Source: Blasia pusilla
Lineage: Eukaryota
Direction: 5' to 3'
Assembly: GCA_050084515.1 (NCBI GenBank)
Contig: CM114271.1
Span: 34,348,001-34,412,000, forward strand
Length of the DNA stretch: 64,000 nucleotides
Each line of letters starts with the position of its first letter. Within the stretch, counting starts at the first letter, position 1. Below are positions 2,997 through 59,230 of this stretch, one piece after another. The position numbers and the translations under genes were made by a program. The notes below the pieces were generated by a model. That model was not told where the DNA came from, made no database searches, and saw only the letters and a program-made list of their open reading frames with translations.

Positions 2997-3357
<361 letters not shown>

Positions 3358-28139: not shown

Positions 28140-31100
28140 TCAATACTCCCCTTCAGAATCATATCGATATCTCTAACACCTAAATCAATTTTCTGCATCT
28201 CAACTTTATCTCTACACAATGCCTTTATAAAGATATTAGCAACTTGCTAATGTGTAGCTATACACATAAGTTCAATTTCTCCTAGAAGCACTTTTTCCTT
28301 GATAAAGTGATAGTGCATCTCTACATGCTTTGTTGGAGCATGAAACACAAGGTTATTAGCAATCTTAATGCTACTAATATTTTTTTATATATATTACACT
28401 TGATCAAAAGTTACTTACACCAATCTCAACATGCAATCAATAAAGCCACACCGCCTCACATGTTGTATTGGTTGCTCTTCTATACTCAACCTTTTTTAAA
28501 GATAAAATAAACGTAGGTTATTTTTTTGAAGCCCAACTTATAAGTGCGCTATCTTAGTTGAAGGAAAAACCAAATAGGGAATGCGTATTAGACACGATTC
28601 TTGCCTAAACAACATGTGTGAATCTTGTAATTGTAAAATTGGAGAAGGTTCAAATTGAAGCCCAAACTAAACCGAGAATTTTGCATATCGCATAATCCTC
28701 CTTGCAGAATCAATGAGGTTTTTGAGGTGCTTGCATGAATTGGCTAACTAAGTCAATTGCATAGCTAAAGTCTCACCTAGTAATAGTCAAATAGATCAAA
28801 CTTCCAACCATGCGTTTGTTTATATTGGAATTTGAAAGAAACTCTCCTTCATCCGCTTTTAGCTTCACACTCTTGTCTAACGGTGCAGAGATTGGCTTAC
28901 AAGCATCATACCATCTTTTGAAAGCATTTGAAGAACATACTGTCGTTGTAATAACCATATGCTCTTTCCAACATTGATAAACTCAACACCTAGGAGGTGT
29001 TTGAGTTCTTCTAAGTCCTTCATATGAAATTATGCTTATAATTTTAACATAATTTAGCATGATGTGAATCAAAATCTTAGATCTTAAACCTATGCTGTTG
29101 TAGGATGTATGTCTTCTTGCCATACCACGCTCTTGACGCTTGTTTGAACTTGTATAAAGCTTTCTTTAATCTGCATACGCGTAATAGAAATTATAGATGC
29201 TCATATCCAAATGGTTGAGCCATCTATACCTCCTTATGTGAATCTCCACTCAAAAAAAGGAATTCTCGATATCCATATGATGGTCTCTACTTCTTACTCA
29301 CTGCAATTGCAACCATTATTCTCGTATTTGCCATCTTTGCAACATAGCTAAATGTTTCCTTGTAATCGATACAAGATTGTTGTATATAGCCCTTGGCTAC
29401 CAACTTGGCTTTGTATCTATTCACTATACAATCTTGATTGTGCTTGACCTTTTAAACCTATCTACAACCAAAAGCTTCCTTACTAAAAGGTAAATCAACC
29501 AACTTGTCGTGTGCATACACATCGCTACACAACCCACATCACTGGTCACATCTACACACCACACAACACCAATCTTTCCAACACACGGGTCGAATCATCT
29601 ATAAACCAAACAAACTCACACATATACATCGAGATTCCACAACAAAATCAGAGTAGTAAAAACGGCTCATCCGGCCTAAAATTCCACTCTTGAATCTACA
29701 TTGACATATCGAATCACATCCATCCTCTACTATGAGGGAATGCGGATACTAGCACCCTAACTCCTACACACCCACATACGTTTATGCAAGAGAGGCGCTC
29801 CTAAGGCTCAACATGAGAATGATGGCTTGAGAAAGCCATCTCTCTCACTCTTATACTCTTGGGAAGAGCCAAAAGGCTCTTCCCCCAAAAGTAGCCCCCC
29901 CAACGGTAACCTACGTGCACAGGTTACCGGGTGACCGTTGACTCGGTCAATAGATCACTTGACGGACTAAGACCAAAATAGGAAAATGATTATAAATGGG
30001 GTTCCCCACGCAACAGACCTGTCGCCAACTTCATCCAACATCTCAGGATGAAGTTACATCCAAATAACACGCCGACTCTCTATACTGTCGAAGTGATAGA
30101 ACTCTACCTACGTCAAACTAAGATGTGACAAGCTTCCAAGTCTGTTGACTTCTTAATGCAACAAGCTCTTCCTCCATAACTTCAATATTTTCAACCTCAC
30201 ATGTAGCTTGTTCAAGATAACTTCATTCTTGTTCTTGTCATTATATATGCATGATATGTTACAAGAAACTCTTCATTTATGGATCTTTGAAGAGGATGTG
30301 TTACTCTACTTGATCTACAAAGTTATTTTTCAGAGGGGGATGCTTGTGACATTTAACTTGACCTCTGACTAGTGCCACTAGATTGAATACGTACTCTTTC
30401 CAACCATGGATTGAAATAATTAACTTAAGAGTCTAAGACCTCTCCTAACCCGACACTAGTACTTGGAGAATTTTTAAGGAATGTTTGTTGGTTTATAATC
30501 ATATTCTTCCCCTCAATACACATATTTAGAGGTGGAATAAGTTTAGATAGAGCATATCATGATTTCATCTCGTAAAAAATAACATTGTGACTAATAATAA
30601 GCTATCTTTAGGATAGAATGTAGCACTTATATTATTTAGTTTTATTAGTGTGGCCAATAAAGATTCTTGAATTTGAGATCTATTTTTACATTTTTCAGAA
30701 GGAACATGGGCATAAAAAATTGAACCTAAGACTTTTAGAAATCAGATTTATTTGTTGTGAAGACTTTGAATGGAGTCTTATTATGAACTCATGCTATTGA
30801 AGTTTAGTTGATTAAGAAGACTACGTGCGCTATCGCCTCTACCCACTACATATTAGACATGTTCTTCTCAATCAACATAGCTCCTGCCGCCTCAATAATC
30901 ACTAGAAGAAATCCTTGGTTTAATGACAAGGTTTTATGACTCATATATCACCATCAATGAGAAGAAATGACTAGTTATTGCAGAGATACAAAAGCCAAGT
31001 TATTTCTTCCACATAATTTGAATGATTAGCATGGTTTTTTGCAATGACATGAAAATATGAGTCATATTATTATGACTGCAATGCCCTTAGACAATATGGC

Positions 31101-31429
31101 AAGTAATTTGATAATTTAAACTAAATAGCAACAAATTTCAATAGATCAACAATATGTTTGATATTAAAAACAAAGTCTCTGATGTTTTGTGATCCTTTCT
31201 TCATTTGGTTCAATTTTTGTTCCAATTGAAGCTTTTTGGCCTTTTTAGATGTTTGGAACAACTTATCCAATACATCCTTGGCTTCCTTCAAAATATCAAC
31301 GTCTTGAATTTGATTAATTAATGACGAACTAATCGTTATTAAGATATAGTGGATTACTTGTCTTGCTAATTTGTTCCAAATGTAAACATTCAAGTCTGTT
31401 GAGTCATCTTTTGGTTTGCCTTCATTACT
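28140..31429 (-). mobile_element. Degenerate Ty1/copia retrotransposon (gag, integrase, RT, RNase H, PPT), interrupted by a solo LTR
   Basis: Minus strand: gag/UBN2-like KEAKDVLDKLF...KKLQLEQKLNQMKKG (31121-31420); integrase EAAGAML...WVEAIAHVVFLIN (~30800-30900); RT EEELVAL..QTW-LVDLP, RYKAKLVAKGYIQ...IDYKETF, MVGSLIYLTITR; RNase H KHVEMHYHFIKEKV; purine tract GAAGGGGAG at ~28146-28154. Confidence 0.85.
29505..30130 (-). mobile_element. Solo LTR (626 bp, TGTC...GACA termini) inserted in the copia RT
   Basis: Inverted 4-bp termini, flanks AACT/AGCT (4-bp TSD, 1 transition). Removing it restores the copia motif T-W-K-L-V-D-L-P. Homologous to 55021-55320. Confidence 0.85.
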
Positions 31430-32501
31430 TGTCATCACGTGGACAAAGTCCGTGTGGGCTCGAGTGCGGGCTCCATGATCCCGCGTTGCCCGCGGCCCGT
31501 GCACAGCGAGCATTCCACCCTTGCCTGCCCAGTGTGCATCATGCCCGACGCCAACTTTTTGGTCGGGCCCGTGTTGCAAATATGTAGGGCCTGCGTCGTG
31601 CCTTGTGATTCGTCGCCTCGGGCCCTAGCCTGCATGTGGGCTCTAAGGCCCGCAATGGAGCCCGCAAGCCCGCAAGCCCGCCTGCCCCCTCGACCTCCCC
31701 TCGCATGGCGGCCTGGGAGTGGTTGGGGCCAAGTTCGAACTTGGCCCCCCCCCTTCTTCCACTTTTCTCCCTTTTGGGTAAAATCCATAAGGGAAGGGCC
31801 CACAAGGGGCCCCAAAAACGTACATATGGAGGGGGATTTAAGGGGTTAATTACCTATTTATCCAAAATTTTAGTGATATTTTGGATTAGGCTCCAAATGT
31901 TTATGGTGCCTTGATAACTAAGGGCTCCCAAGGTTACTAGGAATTTTGCAGAAATCCCTTGGGTACCTTGATTTTATTTGGTACCAACTTGGATATTTGC
32001 GCTCCTTGTTGCATCCTAAAGAAACTCCAATTGACTCCACATTAGGTGAGTGTTTGTGAGTGTGGAATCTCTTGTTTCACTAAATTCTTTTGGTGATTTT
32101 GAGATTTATGATTCATAAACCCGAGTATTTTGATTTGTTTCATTGGTTCTCCTTAGCACATCGGGGATATGGGGTTGATCAAGGAACCTTATCTAAACAC
32201 ACCCATATCTACCTATTTCCTTTTAGTGCCCAACCGTAAACTTAGACCGCCGTTCCATCATTCACGCGCCCGTACATTCTGAGCCATTTTTTTAGCATCT
32301 CGCGTCATTATCTTTTCGGTATTTTCTTATCTCAACCCATACCTTTCTTTCCCTTGTTTTTTTACAAGATTTTATTATCTTCTTCATCCGAGAGTTGGGG
32401 CCATCCCTAGTGGGGTTGGGTCATCGAGAGCGGGAGAGAACCAAAATGAGTCTAACAATGGAGCCAAGAGACAAAGAGCAAATTCGAGGAATGATTTCAA
32501 C

Positions 32502-33772
32502 ATGGCCGTAAGAGAGGTATGGTTAGATTGGTTTTTCCAGCTTTCTTTAGATAAGAGACGATCCTACATTTCTAGGGGTATGGATGGTTTCCATGACTAC
32601 ACCTTGGAATTGGAGAGATTGTCCAATAGAGTGGCAAAGACGATTGAGTGGGAAGTGGATGTCGTGAAGGCTGATAGGTTAACTTAATTTTGTGCCCAAC
32701 AAGGTGTTAAACTAGAGAGACGGTATGTCGATCTCAAGACATATAAGGATGAGAAGCAGAATGCTGCAGAGTCGGCTCTCCTAGAAAGATTATGTGTAGA
32801 GTTAAGAAGTGCTCTACGTCTTTTCAAGGGACGTAGTACTTCAGTGGGGTTGACATTGACTGTTCTATGTGCAATAACATTCATTTCTGATATGAATGTA
32901 GTAGTAGGACATGGCCTGAGCAATATTCTGGGAACATGTTTACATGAAATTGTGTATGGTTGTAAAATAAATGGAACCCATGGCTTTAGGGAAGAAATGT
33001 ACTATTGCATGAAGGTGTTTAAGGAATCATCTCTATCAGGATCTAGAATATCAATGATGCGCGAGGAGTTATTTGCGAGTATTTTACATCGCGGTGTTGT
33101 TCGCATGGTGGGAAGGTTGATCGAGGATCCACCGCGTGCCATTTTTCCGTATTTTTCCATGGATATCTCAAAAATATGCCACGAGCATGCCATAACTTGA
33201 AGAACGGCGGGGGTAATCTAGGATGTCTGTCTCGCAATAGCATCACATGTCGTCTAGCTCGTGGATGCCCTTCTTGGTACCATAGAGACTGTCCACAAGC
33301 GTGGGGGTTTTTCATACTGACCTCCATGCTATGAACATGGTCATCCATTTTGGATCCAACTCTAGCCCATACATCGGCATTGGAGATTGGGGAAATGCCA
33401 TGTGGATTGATGAAATCTTAGAGTCTCCTCATAGATGGTGGCAGCATGAAGAAAAAAAATCATGTTGGGCATATAGCAATGAAGTTGAAAGCAGGGCTTC
33501 AGAATCTCCCTTTTAGCAAGGCCACAGAAATCTATGCCCTAGGAATGATTGTGAAGAATTTGAACTATGTGACATACAACCTCTATGTCAAAAATGCCCA
33601 AGCGAACGTGAGATTTACTTATTTGGAAAGGATTCAAAAGTGGGCATTAGCTCCGAATCCCTCTGATCGCAAAAGCTTAGAGTTTCTTATTGCATATATC
33701 AGAGCAAATGTGAAAGTATTAGGTGTAGACGATATAGATTCGGGATTAAGGCTAGTAACAATGGTAGTGTGA
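32502..33772 (+). pseudogene. Intronless atypical protein kinase pseudogene
   Basis: Subdomains in order: degenerate Gly-loop LGTCLHEIVY, YCMKVF (beta3 Lys), REE (helix C), HRGVVRMVG, FHTDLHAMN (catalytic loop), IGIGDWG (DFG-like), HIAMKL (APE-like), SKATEIYALGMI, PNPSDRKS. Stop at 32685 and frameshifts near 33170-33300 and ~33455. Confidence 0.75.
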
Positions 33773-33966
33773 TTGTAAATCCGTTTGGGGATTGGATATT
33801 TTTCATGAGAAATGAAAGACTTGGTTCAAAAATATGAATGTGTTACTATGAATTTTTGTAAATGATGAAGCTTGATTGATGTACAGATGTATCGTGTGTC
33901 ATCGTATCACTATTATTGGAATCATTTCTAAATCACCTTTCTTTTTGTATTTTGGTAAAAGAGAAG

Positions 33967-34752
33967 ATGGAGTTGCCATCTCATGAAGACCGTAGCCCTC
34001 ACGACAATGAGGGCGACAGAAGAGGGGAAGAACCCCTCCATACACCGAGACTAGAGATCCCTCCAAAGGTGAATAAGAAGATGGTCTTGCAATTCATCAC
34101 GAAAGATGAATTGAAGGTGCATATGGATAGCGCTATTGACCCACAAGTTTTGAAAAGAGAGTTCAAGAAGTCGCGGCTGAAGTGGATGAAGCGTGCCATT
34201 GGAGAATTTTCAAGGAAAGTGGAAGAGAATGAGTGGACAAAGGATTGGGCTTTATTCAATGGCGTCCGAAAGTACGAAGACCTCCCTAAGACGAAGAGGA
34301 AGTTTGTGAGCAAGGTATTTGTTCAGCTCAAAGTTGTGGAGTTGATGAAGGATATGGAGGTTAAATATGGCGATGTGGATGAGGGGTCTTCGAGAAGAGA
34401 TAAGAGACTAAGAGAAGGAGATAGTATAATCCCACCGCCACACTTTAAACGAGCAAGAGTGGAAGTGTCATCACCATGAGCGTCATCACGCCATTATCTG
34501 CAAGGTGGATTGTCAAGGAGCCTTAGAGCCATACTATCTTCCTTGGATGGTCAAAGAAGAAGTCGTTGTGCTGAAGAAGATATACAAGACGAGAGTGGAG
34601 ATGAAGGGCGAGTACAGATGGGGGCAAAGGATAGACGAGATGGTTTGAATGACCTCTATGTAGGTCGTAGTACGAGCTTTGATGAGACCGGGGATCACTA
34701 GAAGGAATATGGTGCTTTTAGCACTAAGGCACTCACAACTAGAGTCCACTAA
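33967..34752 (+). pseudogene. Uncharacterised charged-protein ORF with in-frame stops, probably TE-borne
   Basis: 171 open codons from ATG 33967; the same frame continues past TGA at 34477 (CGA>TGA-like) and TAG at 34699. No family recognised. Confidence 0.45.
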
Positions 34753-35001
34753 GAGTAAAATACAACTAATTGTAACTAAAGAGACTTGTGTGCGCATGAT
34801 ATAGTATCACTTAGAATGACTAGAGAATATGACTTGGTTTTTTAAAATATAATTGTAAAATTAATTTCTTATTAATTAATGGCATGTAACGTAGAATGAC
34901 TAGATTAGTGCAAAATAACTAAGACATGGAAATTATGATAAATTAATTTAAATTCAATTTTAGTCCATAATATGAGGTGTAAAAATAAGACTAGACTATA
35001 A

Positions 35002-35153
<152 letters not shown>

Positions 35154-35479
35154 CTGTTCGCTTTCTACTCGGGATTCCGACCGCTTTCCTTGTATTAATG
35201 AGCATCGATGCGGAGCTTGTAGGACGGGTGAAAACATTTGGAATAGTGGGCATTCCTTACTGAATCGCGCCGCGTAAAGTCATTTGTAGGGAGGAAAGTA
35301 GCGTAAGAGGTGTGGAGAAGAGTCGCGCCGCATACCGACATTCCTGCAGTAGAAGGGATGCGAAGGAGAAGAAGTGGACGGCTCGAGGATGCAAGAGTGG
35401 ACGTTCTGGTGCGCAGTTTGAGTATGTAAAGCGTTTGAGAAGGTGGATCTCTCTTTCCAAACTCTTACCACCTTCCAAA

Positions 35480-35700
35480 TGATCAAAGTTTGTATATTGT
35501 TTATCATCCCTGCAAACTGTCCTAAGAGTCTTTGCTCCACAAGAATCTCGGAGATGAAAATCCGTGGTCCATTCTCTAATTCGCCCTCCCCATTGAGGAG
35601 GTGGTTAGGCGGAGAGTACCATAGCGCACATAATGTTTTGGCAGGAAACCAAAGCTCATTGCGAATGATGTAGTTGAGATCAATTGTGCAATTGAATCTG
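35480..35700 (-). pseudogene. Fragment of a DUF1338 / 2-oxoadipate dioxygenase-decarboxylase (HGLS/FLO7-like) gene
   Basis: RNELWFPAKTLCALWYSPP...NGPRIFISEILVEQ resembles the plant DUF1338 segment RDELRFPAKKLRALWFSPP...NGPLPRIFISELLVDQ (recalled from memory). The rest of the gene is absent. Confidence 0.7.
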
Positions 35701-36283
35701 CTGAGGAGTATCATGCATGCCTTGATCTTGATGAAGCGTTAGCCCCTTGGTGGAACCGTGGATGGGAAGAGAGAAAAGCAACATACGATAAGGCTAGAAA
35801 GGAGGAAGAGTGGTACATGTGGAGGAAGAACATCAAGGAGTTGTCACTAGATTGGTGAGGTAATATATAGTATGAAATAGGTAATGATGTAGCAAAAAAG
35901 GCAAAGAGTGAGAGAGTATTTTCTTTCGAATTTTTTTAAAATGATATTTAAAATTCTTTTGTGAATGACGCTTTTTTGATGATGTTCCACATTTGACTTG
36001 CTATCTATTTTTTGGATCCATGATGCAGGTGATAGCTACAATGTTTGAATGGGGGAAATTGGAAGATTTACGACTTTGCTGTAGTTTATAATTTGACATG
36101 TAAATACCTATGGAGAAAAAATGATGTCTGAAATAGTCATTTTGGTTGATATCTTCTATTGATTGATCATGCGTCTGAATGTAAAATTGTATCATCCCTT
36201 AGAACACATGAAAAATAGATGTGAATGGAGGAGAGTTCTATATTATGTAGCCTATTTTTACACATATTATTTGGTCTATTAGA

Positions 36284-39200
36284 ATGGAGACAACGAGGCA
36301 ATTGGAAAAATCTAGGCCAGGTTTAAATGATGTTGGGAGGATTTCTTCCCACGACAATAAGATCTTGCGTAAAGAGAAGGAAGAAACTAGAGGTCTTGGG
36401 TTGAAGAAACTAAGGTGCCCGAGTAATGAATGCAAAGGGATAGAATTGAGATTACTACACATTGCAGAAAAGCACCTCATTCAAAATAAGAGATATCTTC
36501 CCAAACGAATCTAGGTAAATCCTGATGATTAAAATTCATCAGATGAGGAGTGGAAATCAAATGAACACCACCATGGTGATAATCACCATGCTCTAGATGA
36601 TGGTGATGTTATAATTGATATAAATAAGTCATATAGTGATCCACCGTTGAAAATTGACAACACGTTGGATATCCATCGGATGATGAATGAGGCTTTCCAT
36701 ACCTTTGACATGGGAAGGTCCAAGATCTGCCAATAGAGATACAACTAGATGCTAGAATCGAGGATGAAGATCAAGTGCCATTTGAGATTGGGGTAGACGA
36801 ATCTAAAAGGGGAGAAGGTAAGGAGGAATGGGCTACATAGTCTAAGGTGTTAAGGAATTCTTGTCAACCCTTATTTATGGGTCTTAAAACTAGCAAAATT
36901 GCATTCATCATGTTGTTCTTAAACATATGTGGTACTCACAATGTCTCAAATATTGATGTGGATGAGATCCTAAAATTCCTTGCACTTCAAATCATGCCTC
37001 GAGTCATGCCCAATGAGAATGTGGTTCCAAGAAACCACTATGATGCCAAAACATTGATCACTAAGTTGGGTTTGAATTACATTCAAATCCATTGTTGTTC
37101 TAATGGTTGTATGCTCTTCAATGGCGAGCATAAGGACTTGTTGAATTGCTCAAAGTGTAATTCCCCTTGATATAAAGTGCAAGGGAAAACAAAGATTACT
37201 GTAAAGGTTCTCAGACACTTTCCAATTATCCCGTGGCTAAAATGTATGTATAGATGTAAGACCATTGCCGAACTAATGAAATGGACATCAGAAAACAAAA
37301 GTAGTGATTCTAAGGTGCGTCATGTTGGAGATTTTTGACAGTGGAAAGATATAGATCATCGTTGGCGAGAGTTCATGAACGATCCTCATAATTATCGATT
37401 AGGGCTTGCTTTAGATGGAGTTAATCCTTTTAGGGACAAGAGTTTAGTTTGGCCAACTTGGCCTGTTGTTTTGGTGAACTATTATCTTCCACCATGGTTG
37501 TGTACAAAGAAATTCTTTCTCCAATTGGCTTTGATCATTCTTGGTAAGGAGTCAGTGTCTTCTTGTAACTTAGATGTGTATCTAGCTCCACTTGTAAACG
37601 AGTTACAACTACTTTAGAAAGGAGTTGTTGCATATGATAGTTCTTGTCTTGAAGGCCAAGATAAGTTCCTTCTTAGAGCCATGATCATATGGACTATCAG
37701 TGACTATCCTGGGCTAGGTGTGGTCTCTAGCCAATGTACCAAGGGAAAACTGGCATGCGTGGTGTGTGGACCACGAGTAGATTCATATTATTCTAAACCT
37801 TTGCATAAGCCAACATTTCAAGGCCACCGACGGTATACAGATAGGAATCATTCTCATAGGAAGATCCAATTTGCGCATCTTTTCAATCGACAGATTGAAA
37901 ATCGTCCAATGGCCAAGCGCGTGACGAATCATGATATGTTGAGATGGGCTTAAATGAAGAAGATATTTGATGAAAAACCAAGACCTAGGCACAAGAGGGG
38001 TGAGCAAGTTTAGGTTGATCCCTACAAAGTGTATGGGGTCCAACGTAAGAGCATTCTATTCAAACTGCCTTATTGGAAGGTGAGTAAAACCTATTGAAGA
38101 TGTTTGCATTTTTCATACTTGTCGTACTTTCCATTTCTTATGGTAATTGTGTTGGTAGGATCTTGATAGTAGTTTCTTTGTTGAGTGCATGGATGAACCC
38201 TAAATTCAGATTATCCCTTCTTGATTATTTTACGGGATTTATTGATCCGTCATACCCTTGACATTATGCATTGTGAGAAAAATGTTTCAGAAAATATGTT
38301 GAAAACCTTGTTTGGTATGAAAAACAAGGACTCAGTTCAAGTTAGGCAAGACATGGAGGTTAGGGGAATTAGACGTCACTTGTGGATTCAAGCACATCCT
38401 AGTAGAGCATCCGTCAAGTTAAAACCAAAGGCAGATTACGTACTTACCCAGGAGGAGGTTAAGGTATTTGACGCTAGGGTACAAAGTGTGAAAGTTCCTA
38501 GCGGTTATGATGGTGCTTTATAGAAACATCTTCTACGGAAGAATGTGGGTGCACTTAAGTCCCATGACCATCATATTTTTATGCAACAACTCTTACCATT
38601 CTTTTTGCGGGGACTCTTGAAAAGCCCAGTGAGGATGACTATCATGCGCATGTCTAGAATTTTCCGACGCCTTTGTGTGAAGACATACGACTTGGAGGAT
38701 TTTGAATCCTTAAAAGAAGACGTTTCTACCACACTTTGCCTTATGGAGATACACTTCCCCCCTTCCTTTTTTGACGTGATGACTCACCTCCTTGTCCATT
38801 TGGTTGAAGAGCTTGATATTTTTGGCCTTGTTCCATGTCGGTGGATGTACCCTGTGGAGAGATACTTGGGTGTATTGAAGAATTACGTCAAATCACGTGC
38901 TAGACTATAAGGCTCTATGACCAAAGGATATCTACTTGATGAAGCTCTTGGTCTTGTCACCGAGTACATGCAAAACTATGATGTCATACAAACAAGAGTT
39001 TGGGATGCAACCAAGGACGAAGGAGTTATTGGCGAAGTGTTAGAAGGTGCTCGGACCAAGCGTCAAATGAGCTTTGAACTTCTTGAAGTGGCACATGCAT
39101 ATGTGCTCCACAATAGTGAATGTTTCACAATGTGGTTGGAGTAAGTACTAGTGTTATGTTGTTATGGCCTTTCCATCTAGTTTCCTTCTATCCTTTCTAT

Positions 39201-40117
39201 TCTATTGAATCAGATTATTTGGGCATGAAGAAGTAGCTACCTTTTGTACATAATAGAGGGTGCAGTTTTTTAAAAGTGTGTCATTAGTGGTTATTTCGCA
39301 GGAAGTTGAGAGAGGAGGGCAATGGGGATTCCACATTCTCTGAGTGGATCCGTCCAAAGATCATAGAATGGTTAGCTTCCGGCCATGATGTTGATGATAT
39401 GGTTGTAAAATTTTCGGTCCCACCTTCTCAATTTTACTTGTCATACAAAAAATGAAAGCTTATGGAAACCATTTTAGGGTAGATGATGGAAGTGATTACA
39501 CAACCTTTGATTCGGGGATTGCATCAATCTTTGAATCTCATTCGTCAGAGGAAGCTATTGCAAACCATCATATGCCTTATGTTGGCCTCTTGTATGATAT
39601 TTTAGTTATGGATTATGGCCGCTTAGAGCAGCCCATTATCTTGATGAGGGGAAAATGGGTTCAATCTACATGGGGCTCCCGAGAACCCACCATGCTTTAT
39701 GATGAGAATGGTTTCCTACTAGCCAACTTTAGAAAATTCTTGCCCTTGAATTCTGATCCTTTTGTTTTTCCTAGCCAAGTAGAGCAAGTATTTTATGGAG
39801 ATGTAGAAGATAGGCTAGGATGGAAAGTTGTTATGCAAAAACAAGCACGATCAAGAAGGGTAGTGGGGGAGAGTGTAGACCTATCAAGAAATGATAGCTT
39901 GCAACCTAGAGGGTTTGATGCTCATACATAGCTAGAGAGTGAAGTTCCTGACATAACACTGGTTGGGGCAATATAACTATCAGATGAAGAAATAACAATT
40001 GCAAATATGGACTACACTACAAACGATATAGAGGATGCAAATGAAGGAATGTATGAGGCTCCTACATCTCAGGATGAGAAGGAGCAAAAGAGTAGCTCAA
40101 ATAGTCAAGATGAATAG
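36284..40117 (+). mobile_element. CACTA/En-Spm TnpD-like transposase pseudogene (Transposase_21, DUF4218, DUF4216 regions)
   Basis: CPSNECK, IHCCSNGCMLF...CSKC, RLGLALDGVNPF, TWPVVLVNYYLPPW, WTISDYPGLG, LPYWK/DLLIRHTLDIMHCEKNV, LKSHDHHIFMQ, FPPSFFDVMTHLLVHL, WMYPVERYL, DPFVFPSQVEQVFY. Intron-like breaks at ~38080-38236 and ~39141-39301; multiple stops. Confidence 0.93.
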
Positions 40118-40400
40118 TCAATTCATGCCTTTTGGTGTTATTCTATACAAGTAGGGCAACAACTTTACCTTGTAAGGTTTTAAGTGAGAAGGATTTTCAA
40201 TGATAATAGTATGCCTTGGACATGTGAATTTTGAGTTTTCTAAATGCTTTTTTTGGATTTTGGATCTATCTGTTTGAGGAACTTTATCCAACTTGATGAC
40301 ATATATCTTTTTTGAGAAAAAAATTCCTAGAGAAGTACTTACAATCGGACCTTATTTGTAGTTTTACACCGGGTCCAATTTCATTAGTGTTTGAATGATC

Positions 40401-42800
40401 ATGCCATCGGAGGTGGGCAGAGACTTTGAGACTGATGATAAGACCCGCATTGTAGAGGAGAGTCCTTGGAGTAAGTACCATCGACTACATGAGGAGCGTG
40501 TGGCTTTTGTGAGAGAGATGACAAGGAAACTTAGGAAGGAGTTTTAGTTAGAAGTACTCTTTGAACTTGGACATTGGTGGACTTACTTTAAGAAGGTTCT
40601 GGTTTTCATCCTTTGTGACTATAATCTTACTAACATTGGATGGATTGGCTATCAATTTGGTTTGAAGGAGAGTTCTTCCACCTCTTAAGCAACCTGTTCT
40701 TCAAAAGAGTGCAAGAACCAGCGAGGGTGCTTGTTCATTAACTCCAAATGTATGTAATACTTGGAGTGTTGCACAGAGAACAATTGCGTCGTAGGACTCA
40801 TCAAATGATGAAGAGAAAGGGTTCAGTAGTAATAGTGAATCTGATAAAGACTAAGATGCAACACCTGAACAATCTTCTCCTGAAGGTTTAGAATAGATTT
40901 GAGTAGCCAAAGGGAAGTCTCCATTGAGGCAGAAGAAGAATCGAGGCAAGGCGAGTGAAGAATGTGTAAGTAAGAAGTCTCTTTTTTGCAAATATTGAAA
41001 TACTTGCATAGTAGGTATTTTATATTTTCATAGCTTCTTTCTTTCAAATACTAAAATGACTCACTTTGATTAAATTGTTTGGCGATAGCGTCCTAGTCCG
41101 GGCAAGAAGCAAAAATAAAGCGAGAAGAACCCACTTTCCCATCTTCCCGGAGTCCTACAATGGCCGATTTCTGGGATGTACCCAGGGTTCCAAATGCCCA
41201 CACAATGCCCTTCGGGCATGTCAGGTACTCAAAAGGATCCTAAACACCTCCCATAATATTTCATGAAGTTATAAGTTTGGACAAGGGGTCATTTTTTGAG
41301 GGCTCCAAGAGTTTATTAAATCCGATGTTGATGCATGTTAAATTTTGGCATGCAGGTTCTATTCCTCCTGGATCGGACCAACCCCTTGGCTTCTTTGGTG
41401 GACATTTCTTTGTTCCAAATCTTGGACTTGCCCCACAGGTTCCACCAACTGATCACCAACCTGGTCCACTTGATAAGATAAGTCATTGTATTAATGTTGC
41501 CTATTATGTCAGATTGTACCAAGTAGTAAGGAGAGGGATTTTGATTTTTCTAAAGTGTAGAAGTGGGAAATTTTTGGTGTAGAATCATCAATTAAATGGA
41601 TGAAGAGAAAGGAGGATTATAATGCATGGAAGGCGGCCAACAAGATTTGAGAGCGAGCTGGGCTAAAACTTTTGGTTGAGGTCACAAGAAAGGGTAAGAT
41701 AGTATATGGTTGTGACGGAAAAAGTAGTTGGTACGATGAAGTGAAGGTTGCAGTGCATTGACACTTAGACATCAACATTGTTGATGTTGTTAAATAAACA
41801 CATACAGATTTGAAAGATGTGCGTAGGGATGTTGATGCCCACTATGAATACACGGGGAGTGAACTTAGTGAGAAATTTTGGCGAAACTCTCTCCAAGAAC
41901 TAATGAAGAGGGATAGGGCTCGATTGAAGAGGATGTGGACAGAGGCAGGCTGTTCTCCGAAATGCCCCTCTCCTCTAGATGTGAATCCTAAGAGTTGGGA
42001 AAGTTTGAAATCATATTGGTTGTCTCCCGAAGGACAAAACAAATCTAAGCGTATGAAGGCCAATCGCTCAAAGGTGGAGAAGCCCAATCCCAATGGAAGG
42101 CGTGGTTGTGTAGGAGCAAAGCACAATTTGGTAAAGTCATGCTTTTATTCTCATTATCTCTTCCACCAAGTTTTCATTCTTCTAAATCTTCTACACATCT
42201 TAATCTTAACTTGCAATGGTAACCTCATGTGATGGAAGGTAGCGAAAAGAGATGGGCGGGAGGAGTCCATCCCTACAAGACATTGAGGAGTCTTTGGATG
42301 CAGGAAAAGCATCCCCAAGCTAAGCAACTGTTAATAAGGTAAGCTAATGGGTGACCTTGTTGATAATTAGGTTACAAAAAACAGAAGTTGTCTTGGCATA
42401 GTATTCTAAATTGGATCGCTGTAAAATTCTCTTACAATTTCAGAAATTGTTTTGCTGTATGATATTCAAAATTGGCTTGGCTGTAAATTTCTCTTACAAA
42501 TTCAGAAGTTTTCTTGGCATAGTATTCAAAATTGGCTTGTTGTAAACTGAATTTACAGGTATAGAAGTTTCCTTAGCATAGTATGGTGAATTGGCTTGTT
42601 GTAAACCGAACTTCGAAGTTGGTCATGTGATCTAATATTGTATCTTCATCAAGTTTTTCTTACCAAAAAAATTCTCACTTGTATGTTGGTATTGTTTGTG
42701 AGAGTGGTCTATCCACCTTGACAGATAGGATACGAGTGGTTGAAAATGACTTGGGTGGTCTCAAATCAAACATGGAAATCTTGATGGGAATGATATGAAC
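40401..42800 (+). mobile_element. Second CACTA gene (TnpA/PTTA-like), degenerate and multi-exon
   Basis: 41810-42130 encodes RDRARLKRMW...CPSPLDVNPKSWESLKSYWLSPEGQNKSKRMKANRSKV...NGRRGCVG, the W..L..YW.S...S..K.NR signature of En/Spm TnpA-like proteins. A probable first exon starts at ATG 40401. Confidence 0.7.
42382..42611 (+). repeat. About 60-bp tandem repeat, 4 diverged copies
   Basis: AGAAGTT..CTTGGCATAGTATTC.AAATTGG...TGTAAA unit at ~42382, 42441, 42503, 42561. Confidence 0.8.
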
Positions 42801-43790
42801 TAAAGGATATGGCAAGTAAGGGACAAAACAATATACCAAATCACAAGGTGGGGTCCATACGGACAAGTCCTTCCATAAGACGGACATAAGTCCACGGACA
42901 TGGATATGAAGGGGGGAGAACCACCAATCCCTATGTGGCACAATTTTGGTTAGCATAATGTCGCTGGACAGATTCAGTTGCCCGGCGGCGTTTAGGGTTT
43001 AGGGTTCCGAATATTTCCGAACCTCTCCTCAGCCGCGGGTCAACCAAGAGAACCAAGGAAGAGACGAGAGTTCATATGGTCGAAACATTCAAACTGCACA
43101 TGAATATGTCAAATGTTTCTTTTCTACTTCACCAGACGCCCATTTTGCAGGCACCGCCCCACCAGTGAAAGGAAATAATGGTGCTATGGAACATCCATCA
43201 TTCCGGTTATGAGAAAACGCAAACCCCTTTCGGACAAGCGTTCAATAGCGGGTTTCCGTGTACGCATTACACGTTCGCATGGTCTTTGGAAATGGACCAA
43301 TCGCATCGCGTACACTCTGCAGCTCGTTCGGTAGTAGTTCGAGCTATGGATCCAACGAAGCACCAGTCTGTCCTCACCGAGCGCAGCGCTGGACGTTCGA
43401 ACTGTTCTTGACAATCTGAGAACTTGGGAGATCGTCGCAGTCACCTCAGCGCTGGTCATTTTGCAGCAGATGTGTGGATGTTTCGGTAGATGGACCGAGC
43501 GAGGGTTTAAAGCTCCGGAGTTTTATCATCATGTCGCCTCGGTTTGTTGCTCGGGAACATGATGTAAAATGGTAGTTGTTTTAAACAGTCGCCGCAATTC
43601 CTCTCAAAATGCATTCCGATTGGCTACGTTTCGCGAGCATCGTGAGATGCTCCATCCGATTTCTCAAGCGTCGCAACATTTCGGACCGGTCGCGCGTCGG
43701 GAATCATAGCAACAGATCCGTTCTCTGGATCGTCGGTCCACAGACTTCGTGCCTCCCCGCCCGCCGTTCCGTACCCGCCCGCTCACGGAG

Positions 43791-45086
43791 ATGGTGCGTA
43801 CGAGGGAGTCTGGCAGTCGGGAGATCCAGTTTCACAATGAGCAGGACCGGCGTTCCGGACCCAGATATGAATCCTTTCACCGAATGCCCGGGGAGCGTAT
43901 TAACTCCGGTTCCGCCCGGGACTTTCACGACACGAATGCCGACATAGAAATGCCGCCGCAACGGCCGCAACACACTTACGAGTTCCTTCCCCGATCTCGT
44001 AGCTTCCAGAGCCATGATGAAGCAGAGGACAGAACGATTCGGTCCGCAGACGCTCACGGATTGAGTTACGACGATCGCTCGTCTACTCACGAGAGCACGG
44101 AATATCGTGACAATTTCGGAGACGGTGGGCGGTCTAGATCTCGTAGGAGCATTTCTTCTCCCTCACGGTCCCAAGCTCCTGCGGAGTCTCGCCACCTTAC
44201 GAGATTGAGATCCCGTTCTAGATCTCCCAGGAGAGTGCCGCCGGAGGATCTACTTCCAGCCGGAATTCCCAGTAGTCTCGTTCATGCTTCAGAAGTCAGC
44301 CCTAGATCCCCTGTCAGCTATGCACGATATCACGAATCTCCTCCACGCGCCCGCTCCATTCCTCCCCCAGAAGTAAGCAGCAGTACCGGTGGTACCCAGC
44401 AGCATAGTAGCTTTTATCCATCGGAAGAGGACGAGGTAAGCTCGAAGTACCCCGGAACCCAATCCTCCGACCATTCGAGAAACCGCGTGCAACGCCCGAC
44501 CAGGCCTACGAACTATGGCGATCGATCTCGACCTCGTGTCGAAACGCCTCTCGATAGTACCGCTCATTGTGAGCCCGTGGGTTTTCGGGAAAGGAGAAGG
44601 CTGCTTGCTGAGGAACGAGAGAGGGTGGCTAGGGAGAGGATGCAAGAGAACCCGAACCGATTAGCTTCGACATGGCCGCGACCGCTGTATGACCCGAATC
44701 GCTACACAGAGGAGCCAAACTTTCGCGATCGCTCTAGAAGCCCGCCGCGCAGATCGAATTACAATCGAAATTGGGAAAATGATGTACGTATTACAGACAG
44801 TCCCCAGTTCTCGGAGCCCACGCAACATTATTCTGTTGACGCGGGCAGCGCGCACCTAGGCGAGATTGTCGCCGAGACTCGTAGACACCATCCCCAGTAC
44901 ACGTCGAGGAGGGAAGATCGACGTTATGGCCTGGGGGGTAGACTAGGAGATGATCCCATCGGATCGCATCCGCAAGATGTCGAGGATGTGATGGACGACA
45001 ATTTTTCGCCCACTCCCGTGGAAGTAGCAGCCCATAGTTTGGGTGCTTTGACGTTGCGATCTCGTCCAGGAAGCCCGAGGCGTTAA
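43791..45086 (+). CDS. Intact single-exon ORF, 431 aa, Arg/Ser/Pro/Glu/Asp-rich, probably disordered; no family recognised
   Basis: 432 codons uninterrupted from ATG 43791 to TAA 45086 in a CpG-rich island, whereas neighbouring TE ORFs are full of stops. Confidence 0.55.
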   Translation: MVRTRESGSREIQFHNEQDRRSGPRYESFHRMPGERINSGSARDFHDTNADIEMPPQRPQHTYEFLPRSRSFQSHDEAEDRTIRSADAHGLSYDDRSSTHESTEYRDNFGDGGRSRSRRSISSPSRSQAPAESRHLTRLRSRSRSPRRVPPEDLLPAGIPSSLVHASEVSPRSPVSYARYHESPPRARSIPPPEVSSSTGGTQQHSSFYPSEEDEVSSKYPGTQSSDHSRNRVQRPTRPTNYGDRSRPRVETPLDSTAHCEPVGFRERRRLLAEERERVARERMQENPNRLASTWPRPLYDPNRYTEEPNFRDRSRSPPRRSNYNRNWENDVRITDSPQFSEPTQHYSVDAGSAHLGEIVAETRRHHPQYTSRREDRRYGLGGRLGDDPIGSHPQDVEDVMDDNFSPTPVEVAAHSLGALTLRSRPGSPRR

Positions 45087-46314
45087 GCATCTGTACCCCG
45101 TTTGCTGACAGGAACTAGAGCCTTTGAGGGATGGGATCATTCATCGGTCGAGCGAGAGATTGCAGTGCGCGCTCTCTCTCTCTCTCCCCATACGGTGTTC
45201 AACGGAGACGTCAGTTCCGTTGGCATCTGCCCCTAAATCCGGACCTGATCCCATGTCCCCCCTTTGGGAAGAAACTCTTCATTGCGTTTGCAACGAAACG
45301 TCTACTCTCGATCACGGGTTGAGCGCCTTCAACACTCACAGAAGATGCCACAGTTCGTAAATCCATAGATATATTGCTGGAAGGCCTAATCTGACATGCT
45401 AAGTCTCCTATAAAACGGATGGATCTCACTTATTTCCGTCCCTATAATCGTAAAACTGAAATCTGTCGATGTACTGCTTAGAAGAATTCGTCGATTCGAT
45501 CGACTATCAAGTCGATCGAAACTGGACCTCCTCACTGCAGAACCGTCCCTACAGTGGTTGAGTTTGTTTAACCGTAGGTTATACTAACTCAACTACAACT
45601 ACGTTAGGATGTATTCGGCACAAACCTTCCTTTTTAGGCGGCCTATGAAGAATAACGTTCGATTCTCACGGAGCGGGAGCATTTCCGCATTAAATATTAT
45701 TATTAGTAAGTGCACTCAAATGCATGGGAAATAAAAATATGTTTTAAAAGTGTATAATCTGAAGAGATTAATTAATGAGGTGAAGGGAAGAGATTAGTGA
45801 TGTTTTAAATTAATTCAAATTCGTAACATACAATCCGGTTTCCGTGTTTAAAATAAAAAAAAACATACACATTAGGACGTCCAATAATGTGTGATTTTCT
45901 AATGATTTCGAGAAGTTGTGTGCGAAACGTGTAAGGAGGGGTGTGATAACGTCCGATCTCAGGTCAAAAGCTCAGGTCAGGAGTTGGTACTTCATTAGGT
46001 CTCCAGTGACGGGACTGCTGTACCAGAGTCCGGTAGTTTTTTGCTAGAACCGGTACATTTCCGGTCTTTATGGACTAGAACAATAATTTTGGATATTTTC
46101 TTGAATCCGGCTAGATAAAGAGATACAAATACAAAGGAGGACCCCTCTATTTTTTCGGTTTTTGGCCCTTACAAAATGAATCGGAAATTCTAAATTTCTT
46201 CAGGCTAAGTCAACACTTAACCCCGGTTCTCCACGGACATTGGATATTTCAACTTAAACATTTTATTTACACGAATCAAAATTTTACCGCATTGGCGTTT
46301 AGCTTTGAGTATAA

Positions 46315-47482
46315 CCCATGAACGCCACGTGTGAATTTTTATAGTTCTTTTTATGGAATTTTTTGAAATTCACATAAAATTTTATTTCTATGAGGAATTA
46401 TGAGTCTCTTTTATGCTCAATTTATTTTTCATTTCAAAAAAAAATTCTTCTTTTCATATATTTAAAAAGATTGAACTTTTAATTTCAAGTTAGGTTTGAG
46501 AGGGAAATCACGCATTGTTTTGGAAAGAATAAAGAATAATTATAAAATAACAGTGGGAAAAGAAGTATTCTTCAAAAGAGTGAAAATCATTTTAGTTTCT
46601 TTTCAAAACAAATGAAGCTTTCATTGGGATTTTTCAGGAATATTTTGAAAAAATAATCAAAATGAATGATTTTATTTTATTAATCGATAGAGGGAAGTCT
46701 AAAATATGATGATAAATTCATTTTCAAATTAAGAAGAGATAATAAATGATTAAAAAAAAAAAATGTATTTTCATGATTATTCACATATTAAACCGAAAAT
46801 TTTATTTTCCATTTAATTCTTAATTCCACCTTCAATGTGTGGCTTTTCATTAATGGTTTCATTGTATTCTCCATTTTTAAAGTATTTTCATTTTCATGCA
46901 TATGGTAAAGCATTACAAACAGAAAAACATTTACTAATATAATGATAAAAAAATAATATTTCATTGAAATATATGAAATAATTGAGAATTAAAATTCTTA
47001 TTTTAGAAATTGATCTTCATTATGATTCACTTCATAATGTAGAGATAAATTTTAAAATTAAATTTTATATTTAAATGAACAAAATAAAATCATTCATTTT
47101 GATATAGAAGTTTGTTCAAAATATTCTTTAAAACCTCTTGCAACAAAATCTTGAAATTTTTAAAAAGTCTATTTTTAGAATAATTTTTTTCCACAATTTT
47201 ATTGTTAAATATTTTCATTTTTCACCCAAAAATATGAAATTTCCTATGCTCTCCGAACTTGAAATAAAAAAAGTTTTAAACTTAATATTAAAATAATAAA
47301 TTTAATTCTTTCAATGGAAAAAACAATTGAACATAAAAGAGACTTAAAATTTCTAAAATTTTCTTTGGATTTTTTTACAAAATTACTAAAACCACTTTTC
47401 TACTCAAATTTTATCTTCGTTTAGGCAAAATAAACTTTAATAATTATTGAGTTGAATGGTTTCACGCATGATGTTCAATGGG
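46315..47482. mobile_element. AT-rich foldback/long-TIR MITE-like element
   Basis: Symmetric inverted matches: CCCATGAACGCCACGTGTGAA vs TTCACGCATGATGTTCAATGGG; GAGTCTCTTTTATGCTCAATT (~46402) vs AATTGAACATAAAAGAGACTT (~47325); ATCAAAATGAATGATTTTATTT (~46656) vs AAATAAAATCATTCATTTTGAT (~47082). No TSD found. Confidence 0.65.
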
Positions 47483-47616
47483 AGGATCATTGCCAACACT
47501 TGCGCCCTTAATAGTATTGCTAGTTAGCAATGCGCGTGTTACGTACGAAAAGAGATAGTATTTTAAAGAATTATTAGAAAAAATTTGAAATTAAAGAGTG
47601 GACATTATTTTTAAAC

Positions 47617-47832
47617 CCACTCCTCACATGCATAAAATCACCTGTAAACCAATTCCCCCATAAATATAATCCCTATTAATCAAACTAAACCCCATTACTT
47701 CGTAGAATAATTACTACCTAAGTTTTAATCCATTCCTCACATACATAAAATCACCACTAAACCACTCCCCATAAATATAACCAATCAAATTAAATTCCAC
47801 TACTTCTTACAATAATTACTATCCAAATTTTT
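47617..47832 (+). repeat. Diverged tandem duplication, about 113-bp unit
   Basis: CCA.TCCTCACAT.CATAAAATCACC...CCCCATAAATATAA...AATAATTACTA occurs twice. Confidence 0.75.
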
Positions 47833-47945
47833 TCATTTCTTTTCAAACCCATAGCAAGTTACAAAATGAATACATGAAAACAAAAATAGTAACATTTTAC
47901 TATCTTGTCCTATTATGGTTGCTATCTTGTCTTATTCTACTTGTG

Positions 47946-48245
47946 CAAGGTTGCATGTGGACAAAGTCCGTGTCCGTGAACTTATGTTCGTCATATTGAA
48001 GGATTTGTCCGTATGGGCTCCACCTTTCTGTTCTCTCATTCCCTTTACTTGCCTTCGTGTTCCATACTCTCTCATTTCTTCCTCCCTCCACCTCCACTCC
48101 CTCCTCCCTCATTGCTCCTCTCATCCTTGTCTTGCCTTCCATCATGGACTAAAAGTGTGGGTCCCACCTCTTTGAACCCATGTCCGTGGACATATCTAGA
48201 CTTGTCCGTCCTAAGGAAGGACTTGTCCGCTTTTGTGCAACCATA
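47946..48245. mobile_element. hAT-type non-autonomous element (MITE-like)
   Basis: Termini CAAGGTTGCA...TGCAACCATA, subterminal TGTCCG/CGGACA motifs, 8-bp flanks TACTTGTG/TATTTTTG (6/8). Confidence 0.65.
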
Positions 48246-55020: not shown

Positions 55021-55320
55021 TGTCACATCTTAGTAGTCGATAGAAAGACATCTATCGTGACAATGGTAAGAGTCAACAAATTGTCTTGAGTGTTACTTTG
55101 GCTGAGATGTTGGATGAGGTTGGCGACAGGTTTGTTGCATCGGGAACATTGTTTATGGAAATTTTCCTATTTAGGTCTTAGTCAGTCAGGTTAAACGTTC
55201 ACTCGATAAACTGTGCATGCAGATTACTGTTGGGAGGGCTATTTTTGGGGGAAGAGCCTTTTTCCTCTTCCCAAGGGTAAAAGAGATGTGGGTTGTGTAG
55301 CGATGTGTATGTGCATGACA
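55021..55320 (+). mobile_element. Internally deleted solo LTR (300 bp), same family as 29505-30130
   Basis: TGTCACATCTTAG...GATGTGGGTTGTGTAGCGATGTGTATGTGCATGACA; flanks AAGA/AGGA (4-bp TSD, 1 transition). Confidence 0.8.
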
Positions 55321-56779
55321 AGGAGCTCTCTCTCCTTGGGTATATCCCTCCCCTCTCCCCAAGCTCTCTCCTCGATGACATGTGTACATTGATGACCTAC
55401 TTGGCTCTTAACCCATAGTAGGGGTGTAAGGATAATTTCCAAAAATGGAAATAAAACTATGCTCCTAATATAAACTTAACAAAAATAGTAAGTTTCTAAA
55501 TATGGTTTCAAATGAATCCAAACCAAGGAGAAAGTTGCTTAATGAGATTACCCTAATCCCCAATAGATCACCGTTGATCATCCGATCTCCTTGAAGACAC
55601 CATACAAATACTCATCAATCCACTTTAAAAAAGGTGAGAGTCGCCCTTCCCTATCCCTCAAAGTTGCACGCGGACAAAGACCTTGTCACGGGCTTATGAC
55701 CATCCCTAGGACTAACATTTACGTTCAGGCTTAGGTTCTTGAGGCTCGCACTCGGGTCCATCTTTCCCTCAACGTAGACATGGTCTCGGCTTGCTTGCAC
55801 TCACTATCACCCCCTCCAACAACTTACCGCTCATTCTTGCCACCCATTGCTTTCAGCTCGCCCTTGCTCGTAGAGGCCCGCATCGAGCCCATCTAGCCCA
55901 GATTGGGCTAGCCCAAGTAGCTTAGCAAGATTGGCTACGGGCTCGTGGCAGGCGCGTAGGCTTCCGTCGCATCCGCGCTTCCTGACACTGGAGCAAAGTG
56001 TACCAAGGCCATATATATAATTTCCTTTGGGGATGGATATATTTTGAGCATGGTAAGATTCAACTACTACATCTTCTATTCTCTTAAAGCTAATTCACGG
56101 TGTGAGTTCAAATAACCTTTATTTTTTTGCAGAATGCTTGTGCCTATAGTATTTCTCTTTGAGTGGAATGTACAAGAGAACATGTCAAATAACATGATGG
56201 TGGCGCAAAAAACTTGAGGATTCATGGTGGTATTTATCATGCTATTGGAAAACTACATCAAGAGATAGATGCTTCACCACAATTTGCATATATTTATATT
56301 CATGATGGTCATAAAATATAGAACAAGCATCATAAAATTGAGAAAATCATACTAAACAGGGGGGGGAGGGGGAATATTTTTAAATTACCAAACACGTTTT
56401 GGAGGACACGTGGATAGTCTCAATGACCAGGAAAAAAAATGAGACATGTTTGTAGAGGCCGTAATTAGATTACAAGACGACGTGTAGTGGTTGAGAAACA
56501 TGGAGATCATATAGAGGATAATAATTTATATAGAGCATATTCAGTGTGAGGAAAGAACTCACAAGGCATGTACAAAGACTACAACTGCTCCACAATTTTC
56601 TTTTGTCTAACTCCAAGTTAGAGCCCATGATGTACATTACAGGAAGTTATTGAGGTTGTATCGTTTTACTCAAGAAAACTTGTTGGATGTGTTTGCAAGT
56701 ATAAAGATGTAAACATTGACTTTGGTACAACTTTAGAAGAAGAAGAAAGAAGTTGAGATTTGACTCCTACGTACCGAGG

Positions 56780-58790: not shown

Positions 58791-59230
58791 ACCGTATTTT
58801 CCTTTCTTTTGGATATACTATTTTTCAAGAAATTACTAAGGATTTTACTATTTTATCTTTTCTAAGACTTGAAGGACAAGATCAATAATCATTTAAAAGT
58901 TGATTGTATTCCTGAAATGTGGACCAACGCAATAATGGTTAAGACCATGAAATTGAAAAGTACCTCAATCAAGAAAAGAATTAATTCATTGCTTTCATTG
59001 AGAATAATGTTTATAAATGGATTCATATTGAATTCTTGAGGGACATTTCCATTTGACTAAAAATATTACTATGGTTATTACTATATTATCACTATTGAAA
59101 TGAAATCATGTCTCATTCCCAAGTGAGGTATGTTTTTGTTAACTTGAAAATTTCTCAAAATCCTCAAGATATATTTGAAACATGAAAATTTCCATAAATT
59201 ATACTTTCCCGTCCTTCTTAGTCTCACGAT

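Follow-up and report, generated by a model that had tools for sequence, protein, structure and literature searches.

Does a kinase-like gene that lies just upstream of a transposase belong to the same transposon, or to another element that happens to be its neighbour? This question is raised by a 64-kb stretch of DNA from Blasia pusilla (contig CM114271.1, positions 34,348,001 to 34,412,000), which we refer to as the window. The window is plant-like nuclear DNA with a G+C content of ~40%, and contains retrotransposon and Helitron scraps and one multi-exon host gene. Near its middle, a kinase-like open reading frame (ORF) and an orphan ORF are found upstream of the TnpD and TnpA-like genes of a CACTA (En/Spm) transposon (Table 1). 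The preliminary description of this locus had suggested that the two ORFs form an accessory module of this CACTA family. One part of that suggestion is borne out, as read depth, reading frames and RNA fit a module of a repeat family. The other part, membership in the CACTA element, is unsupported in view of a step in read depth at 34,699, the missing left counterpart of the subterminal array and a difference in CpG content. The arrangement that we favour, at a little short of an even chance, is that two decayed repeats lie side by side: a kinase/orphan unit (~31.9–34.7 kb) and a separate CACTA copy. Membership of the pair in this CACTA would be the less likely option.

Table 1. Positions of the features in and around the kinase/orphan unit and the CACTA copy.
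Feature	Position in window	Strand	Basis
Upstream part of repeat unit	31,900–32,501	+	Depth rise, one-strand RNA start
Kinase-like pseudogene	32,502–33,772	+	Frames, stops, motifs, read depth, weak profile matches
Orphan ORF	33,967–34,752	+	Frame reading, depth; no library match
AT-rich low-copy spacer after orphan stop	34,702–35,004		Depth 36, then 8.3
(CT)73 microsatellite	35,005–35,150		Sequence
Host hydroxyglutarate synthase single-exon scrap	35,532–35,684	−	PDB 6w1k
Probable TnpD first exon	36,284–36,514	+	Met 36,284; Cys/His-rich; ends TAG|GTAAAT
TnpD (CACTA/En-Spm transposase) pseudogene	36,709–39,931	+	Pfam domains, frames, stops
TnpA-like ORF (weak)	41,798–42,232	+	Transposase_24 below cut-off
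Three direct repeats of ~60–72 nt, candidate right subterminal array	42,377–42,628	+	Repeat family D4
Element X, inverted-repeat-bounded segment of ~5.4 kb	42,845–48,229		Arms 42,845–42,924 versus 47,967–48,026 and 48,157–48,229

The kinase-like and orphan ORFs belong to a repeat family

Reads were mapped from one whole-genome shotgun (WGS) run, two RNA-seq runs and one contig run with the same species label. The mapped segment was 29,000–35,004 only, at 80% likeness, and WGS depth (run X11) is the sum of the two mate columns. This depth was 72–150 in every bin from 32,015 to 34,627, reaching 85–137 over the kinase-like gene and 108–150 over the orphan ORF. At the left edge it rose from 11 (31,613–31,813) through 49 (31,814–32,014) to 93 and then 72, and at the right edge it fell from ~115 to 36 (34,628–34,828) and 8.3 (34,829–35,004), with the step at the TAG of the orphan ORF at 34,699. 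Most of the 14,640 mapped reads were less than 90% alike (10,044), and only 40 were at least 99% alike. As so few reads reached this likeness, single-copy depth was taken as ~1×, which gives ~100 diverged copy-equivalents. We infer that the 2.8-kb block from 31.9 to 34.7 kb is a diverged dispersed repeat, present in on the order of 100 copy-equivalents. Within the 64-kb window, no second copy of the block was found. A direct repeat at 31,902/34,708 was considered as the pair of block termini and rejected, as its extended alignment scored 53, a value within the range of the shuffles (mean 37, sd 7, maximum 71).

The reads also inform on the founder of the family. Base 33,303 was missing in 57 of 106 reads and base 33,452 in 48 of 111, precisely at the two sites where the reading frame of the kinase-like copy in the window is shifted. 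As these bases are missing in about half of the family reads, the kinase ORF was contiguous in the founder. Transitions dominate the read differences (C>T 269, G>A 273), and some contigs carry internal-deletion variants (e.g., 33,651 to 34,293). Stranded RNA reads over 32,015–34,426 were strongly one-sided: in run X15, the "first mate on −" class reached up to 11.9 versus 0–1.1 for "first mate on +", and in run X14 up to 4.78 versus at most 0.83. Given the usual stranded library, a type that we assume, the RNA of the block is probably from the + (sense) strand, and most of it derives from other copies.

Equal depth over both ORFs, contiguous frames in about half of the reads, RNA from one strand, and no detectable similarity to the host kinase or to database proteins all fit a dedicated module of a repeat family. 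These observations support the conclusion that the kinase-like and orphan ORFs are not ordinary host genes. We propose that the unit is a member of a lineage-restricted dispersed repeat family of ~100 copy-equivalents, the founder of which would have carried two intact genes, one for a highly divergent kinase-like enzyme in which HxD...N...DxG was kept, and one for a charged orphan protein with basic clusters. This family would still be transcribed at a low level, probably from the coding strand. It was presumably mobile, and the pair may be the accessory cassette of a mobile element, with a mobilising gene that was not identified in this copy.

Could the block instead be a non-mobile, lineage-specific multigene family, in which a kinase-like gene that evolves fast was copied with its neighbour by dispersed or segmental duplication, and left one pseudogene beside a CACTA by chance? 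The block has its own upstream region and is transcribed from one strand, and its edges show no transposase, terminal inverted repeat (TIR) or long terminal repeat (LTR), as this explanation would have it. However, the block resembles a transposable element (TE) in its ~100 diverged copy-equivalents, which share one sharp extent, in its internal deletions and in its strong transition bias, which is typical of methylated repeats. In addition, the N-terminal query found no predicted protein among 1.84 billion representatives, a result that one would not expect if the genes were an annotated family of the host. We consider a multigene family improbable.

Anatomy of the kinase/orphan unit

The kinase-like ORF and both of its motifs, HTDLHAMN and DWG, are found where the preliminary description had placed them. 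The ORF is intronless and full-length, from a Met codon at 32,502 to a terminal stop at 33,770–33,772, and is split over three frames (32,502–33,302, 33,304–33,451 and 33,453–33,769). Four in-frame stops (TAA 32,685, TGA 33,198, TAG 33,219 and TAG 33,255) and two one-base frameshifts, both in homopolymers (G5 at 33,301–33,305 and A8 near 33,452), interrupt it; the copy in the window is a dead pseudogene. The catalytic-loop motif HTDLHAMN starts at 33,313 and DWG at 33,385, with 16 residues between them. Upstream, the sequence can be read from 32,283 into the ORF without a stop, and no CACTA terminus was found in the upstream part of the unit.

The orphan ORF was likewise found as previously described, and had no match in the libraries used, namely Pfam, NCBIfam, the ESM Atlas and a word-index search (near lengths only). 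It runs from a Met codon at 33,967 to 34,750–34,752, with in-frame stops at 34,477 (TGA) and 34,699 (TAG). Its charged-residue content is very high, and the basic clusters KRAR and KTKRK can be seen by eye. The pair may act in the nucleus. Of the scattered stops and frameshifts that had been reported across the locus, four stops and two frameshifts were found in the kinase-like gene, two in-frame stops in the orphan ORF and 14 stops in the TnpD frame.

To the left of the block lies a weak copia-type gag scrap (Retrotran_gag_2, E 1.4e-5; 31,124–31,624, − strand), which is adjoined by a stretch of 61% G+C at 31,412–31,850, where several frames of both strands are open and depth, at 11, is among the lowest of the mapped segment.

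Is the kinase-like gene a kinase?

Over its six frames, the window contains two occurrences of the pattern H.D.{4}N.{10,25}D.G, whereas 100 block shuffles gave 0.03 on average and never more than one. The occurrence outside the kinase-like ORF is a true host CK1-like kinase gene, at 14,015. The catalytic motif pair of the kinase-like ORF is far above chance, and its HxDxxxxN is followed by DxG at a spacing within the kinase range.

Profile and structure comparisons gave signals that were all sub-threshold and agree in direction. The Pkinase profile did not match any piece of the kinase-like ORF, even at E up to 10, and its gathering score was not reached. The APH profile matched the catalytic piece at E 0.013 and the longer read-through (P0005) at 0.023, both below the cut-off, with sub-threshold alignment of profile positions 168–201 to the catalytic loop. 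The best PDB alignment of the catalytic piece was the SR-protein kinase Sky1p, motif on motif but non-significant (E 0.48–0.61), with HTDLHAMN...IGDWGNAMWIDE aligned to HTDIKPEN...IADLGNACWYDE of Sky1p. In NCBIfam, residues 5–90 aligned with positions 131–222 of PknD at E 0.05. For a non-overlapping N-terminal piece, the ESM Atlas returned kinase families only, at 0.94, but with just 107–121 shared features. By eye, a beta-3 Lys (YYCMKVF), an alpha-C Glu (MMREELF) and a subdomain-IX-like SKATEIYALGMIV may be recognised. We take the HxDLHxxN and DW motifs to resemble APH-type enzymes as much as eukaryotic protein kinases. Single-sequence AlphaFold2 models of the protein had a predicted local distance difference test score (pLDDT) of 38 and 51, too poor for use; a Foldseek search with the pLDDT-51 model found nothing at E ≤ 0.001, and the RIPK2 kinase chains in its list (ranks 12, 21, 35 and 43, probability 0.03) were not counted as evidence. 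Taken from sequence, both the fold and the activity are predictions. We think it likely that the ORF has a protein-kinase-like fold, and assign it to no subfamily. That the ORF is not kinase-like at all is given the remaining probability.

Relatives of the protein were sought at several levels. An exhaustive HMMER search of 1.84 billion protein representatives covered the N-terminal 267-residue read-through only, and the C-terminal pieces were compared with Pfam, NCBIfam and PDB only. The HMMER search found no true relative of the N-terminal part. Its sole match (P0004) was rejected as spurious, because it is an 88-residue tandem-repeat translation that matched in 13 weak stretches. A word-index protein search with the N-terminal part, at near and longer lengths, gave no matches, and metagenome scans with a kinase piece and with a TnpD piece gave no relatives.

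These searches bear on a further explanation, in which a piece of a host kinase was transduplicated as cargo of the Pack-CACTA type, functionless for the element. The hydroxyglutarate synthase exon scrap in the same stretch indicates that capture happens here. Against this, the ORF is full-length and intronless with its catalytic residues kept, and the frames of the family founder were intact. Recent capture of a host kinase should also produce matches to thousands of plant kinases, whereas the ORF has no significant similarity to the host kinase of the window or to database proteins. We regard captured cargo as very improbable.

The host kinase in question lies 18 kb upstream (12.8–15.2 kb), and was rejected as the source of the kinase-like ORF, as the best match between the two had an E of 4.4. 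It is encoded by a multi-exon gene at 12,800–17,316 (+), with CK1-like kinase exons near 12.95 kb, at 14,015 and near 14.56–14.71 kb, followed by three DUF7477 exons (E 5e-30 to 1e-34). This gene appears intact and is unrelated to the repeat-borne ORF.

The CACTA copy

In the proposed arrangement, the second unit would be a CACTA (En/Spm) copy without recognisable termini, consisting of TnpD (36.28–39.93 kb), a TnpA-like gene (41.8–42.23 kb) and a right array (42.38–42.63 kb). Transposase_21 matched at 37,339–37,953 in two adjacent pieces (E 1.1e-29 and 1.8e-19), above the cut-off of 28.6 bits, and was followed by DUF4218 at 38,524–38,910 (E 6.1e-25) and, below the cut-off, DUF4216 at 39,398–39,931 (E 1.2e-4). 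TnpD is thereby certain. Its frame at 36,709–39,141 contains 14 stops in 811 codons, ~8 of which are within an intron-like stretch near 38.04–38.2 kb. As the probable first exon had no Pfam match, its assignment rests on position and sequence reading. The TnpA-like ORF, which had been described together with TnpD, is weaker: Transposase_24 matched at E 0.0073 and 16.9 bits, against a cut-off of 28.7, and over profile positions 1–44 of 138 only. The earlier observation that all genes but the host fragment are co-oriented holds, with all of the others on the + strand.

The core motifs of the candidate right array occur only at 42,377–42,628 within the window, with no counterpart to the left of 42,377. 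None of the six other loose matches to the array 12-mer falls between 29.5 and 42.3 kb, and the 17-mer was found in the array only. We compared all CAC[TAG]/[ATC]GTG pairs between 20–36.9 kb and 42.2–60 kb. None combined a TIR with a target site duplication (TSD), the best TSD-bearing pairs (3 bp) reached just 10–13 of 20 TIR matches, and TIR complementarity was nowhere above chance, apart from an unrelated repeat at 29.5/55.3 kb. The preliminary description had not found TIRs either. The copy is old, so its CACTA/TAGTG ends could have been lost by decay or truncation. On the right, the copy is limited by element X, which itself lies outside the CACTA finding. The right terminus must fall between ~42,630 and 42,845, in an unrecognisable form.

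Candidates for the ends of the element were rejected. A left CACTA end at 34,696 (CACTAGAAGGAA) had no right partner and no TSD. An inverted match of this position to 36,634–36,647 was of chance size and included flanking bases. Finally, inverted matches between 29,503–30,046 and 55,102–55,322, considered as the ends of a giant CACTA, belong to a high-copy unit of 626 bp, which begins with TGT and has head-to-tail joints.

One element or two

Between the two units there would be 1.6 kb of low-copy DNA with the (CT)73 microsatellite and the host-exon scrap. Variant letters at 34,955 and 34,963 were present in 5–9 contigs of run X1, which shows that a few other copies exist. The spacer itself contained no TSD or TIR of an inserted element, and is without signs of a discrete insertion. 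The host gene fragment that had been noted here is indeed present, on the minus strand: residues 19–69 of the ORF at 35,283–35,738 (−) match hydroxyglutarate synthase (PDB 6w1k) at E 1.4e-8, with 51 residues aligned. The gene is of the DUF1338 type. An exon-like open stretch at 35,750–35,860 (+) (…PWWNRGWEERKATYDKARKEEEWYMWRKNIKELSLDW) runs up to a GT donor that closely precedes the start of TnpD, and had no Pfam or PDB matches. It could be the 5' exon of a CACTA transcript, or captured DNA.

Several observations are against a shared element, or at least not for it: the depth step at 34,699, the missing CACTA termini and TSD, the lack of a left counterpart to the array, a spacer without insertion signs, and the difference in CpG observed/expected, which is 0.66 in the block versus 0.45 in TnpD and 0.39 at 39.9–42.2 kb. 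The two units may accordingly be separate.

The competing arrangement is that of one composite CACTA, in which the kinase-like and orphan genes were upstream of TnpD/TnpA in an autonomous element, and of which this copy lost or mutated its termini and gained a private spacer with a microsatellite and a captured host exon. CACTAs are known to capture host fragments, and the two units are adjacent and co-oriented, show similar decay and have no terminus between them. As a repeat, the block had intact ORFs in its founder and encodes no transposase itself, and the depth of 8 and the variant contigs at the start of the spacer would fit a small subfamily. Long 5' regions also exist in such elements, with 6,122 bp in the soybean Tgmt* as given in the available part of PMC2613891. 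In contrast, depth drops 14-fold at the orphan stop; no left TIR, TSD or subterminal motif was found upstream of the block; and the left block edge lacks the excess of depth that deletion derivatives usually produce at the ends of DNA transposons. The unequal CpG depletion and the failure to find a kinase-bearing CACTA in full-text literature searches also count against it. We hold a composite CACTA to be possible but unlikely. A more specific form is doubtful to a slightly greater degree: a lineage-specific CACTA with a dedicated two-gene cassette upstream of TnpD/TnpA, made up of an orphan-clade kinase-like enzyme and a charged, probably nuclear partner, which would have been selected during the spread to ~100 copies and would act on the transposition machinery or on host silencing.

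The arrangement as two separate units, which we still favour, has several points against it. The units are just 1.6 kb apart and co-oriented, and as no element terminus was found between them either, there is no positive sign of a boundary. The block reached ~100 copies although it encodes no transposase, and TnpD, right beside it, would be the obvious gene to have mobilised it. Decay is similar, with four stops in 422 codons and two frameshifts in the kinase-like gene versus ~6–7 stops in ~760 codons of TnpD outside the intron-like stretch. In an old family mapped at 80% likeness, the depth step may show where conserved coding sequence stops rather than a physical end, and there may be longer copies that share the spacer, given the depth of 8 and the variant contigs at 34.83–35.0 kb. 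As the right CACTA terminus is also unrecognisable, the missing left terminus weighs little. The kinase-like ORF also fails every profile cut-off for kinase membership, and the strand of the RNA hinges on the assumed library type. A function of the pair in the phosphoregulation of the transposase or of chromatin is purely conjectural.

Neighbouring features

Element X, to the right of the CACTA copy, has arms that are full of GGACAAGTCC and ACGGAC (ACGGAC/GTCCGT clusters), the right arm being duplicated. It is not CpG-depleted, with an observed/expected ratio of 1.16 versus 0.3–0.7 around it, and contains an uninterrupted Arg/Ser-rich ORF of 458 residues (43,710–45,086) that had no Pfam or PDB match. 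The presence of an RS-rich ORF 10 kb from a kinase-like gene with an SR-protein-kinase-like catalytic loop may be a coincidence.

The high-copy unit of ~626 bp is found at 29,505–30,130, and also at 3,439–3,873 and 55,102–55,322, with a summed WGS depth of ~720–1,060. Its left edge is sharp, at 29,504/29,505 (786 and 1,181 loose-ended reads), and read joints connect 30,130 to 29,504/5 head-to-tail; the copy at 55.1–55.3 kb lacks ~300 bp internally. The sharp edge and the head-to-tail joints indicate a tandem satellite or an LTR-like unit.

Elsewhere in the window, a Helitron-like PIF1-helicase scrap (58,523–58,885, + strand, E 1.1e-4) and a reverse-transcriptase RNase H scrap (703–960, + strand, E 2e-6) are further signs that the region is crowded with dead TEs. 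A Pfam search of 81 shorter ORF scraps from the flanks and the spacer found nothing further. A G+C-rich tandem repeat of 72 bp is present at 10,901–11,140 (three units, 81–88% identity), within a stretch of 59% G+C at 10–12 kb, and a long (GT)n/(AT)n microsatellite at 3,001–3,330.

Significance

Our analysis newly shows that the kinase/orphan gene pair belongs to a repeat family, which is modestly interesting. Plant DNA transposons have few accessory genes, but these are instructive on the arms race with silencing, VANC being the model case. If a repeat family indeed retained a catalytically plausible kinase-like gene and its partner in intact form during amplification, and this gene has no detectable relative among 1.84 billion protein representatives, it would represent a new type of transposon-encoded enzyme and a possible handle on how phosphorylation controls transposition or host defence. 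If the reading as a CACTA cassette is true, the kinase-like gene would be the first accessory gene of kinase type in a plant DNA transposon. Should the block have nothing to do with the CACTA, its gene pair would still deserve a name, as an unclassified and transcribed pair carried by a repeat.

Comparison with known systems

Described CACTA elements encode a transposase and ORF2/TnpA, and have CACTA/TAGTG ends and a 3-bp TSD, according to the available parts of PMC4158355 and PMC2613891. In EN/SPM families of Arabidopsis (SPM2, 5, 6 and 9), TnpD and TnpA may each have a gene of their own, the two lying head to tail, as stated in the accessible portion of PMC13547354. The copy in the window is like En/Spm elements (maize En/Spm, soybean Tgmt* and Arabidopsis EN/SPM) in having a TnpD with Transposase_21, DUF4218 and DUF4216, followed by a head-to-tail, if weak, TnpA-like ORF and a subterminal array. 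Unlike these, it lacks CACTA/TAGTG termini, a 3-bp TSD and a left subterminal array. A CACTA with a kinase-like gene was not found in the literature searched, which comprised full texts exclusive of supplements. The word "kinase" does not occur in the accessible main text of the Arabidopsis atlas of TE products (PMC13547354), refers to T4 polynucleotide kinase only in the available part of PMC2613891, and occurs twice in that of PMC4158355.

With Sky1p and the APH/choline-kinase-like phosphotransferases, the kinase-like protein shares a catalytic loop and a metal-binding motif at a spacing within the kinase range. It differs in that the matches are below significance or curated cut-offs, and in that His replaces the Lys of HRDLKPxN.

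The likeness to VANDAL21 and VANC is one of concept. VANDAL21 is a family of plant DNA transposons with lineage-specific accessory genes beside the transposase, as described in the available parts of PMC5735166 and PMC10398659. However, VANDAL21 belongs to the Mutator-like superfamily, VANC is an anti-silencing protein and not a kinase, and the linkage of accessory gene and transposase is established for VANDAL21 only. A second parallel comes from fungal DNA transposons, EnSpm and Plavaka among them, which encode a TET/JBP dioxygenase that is thought to aid the escape from silencing, as reported in the accessible part of PMC12730594. The parallel lies in an enzyme gene that is carried there by transposons of the CACTA superfamily, as well as by other DNA transposons; the differences are that these systems are fungal and encode a dioxygenase with clear homologues, whereas the kinase-like protein has none.

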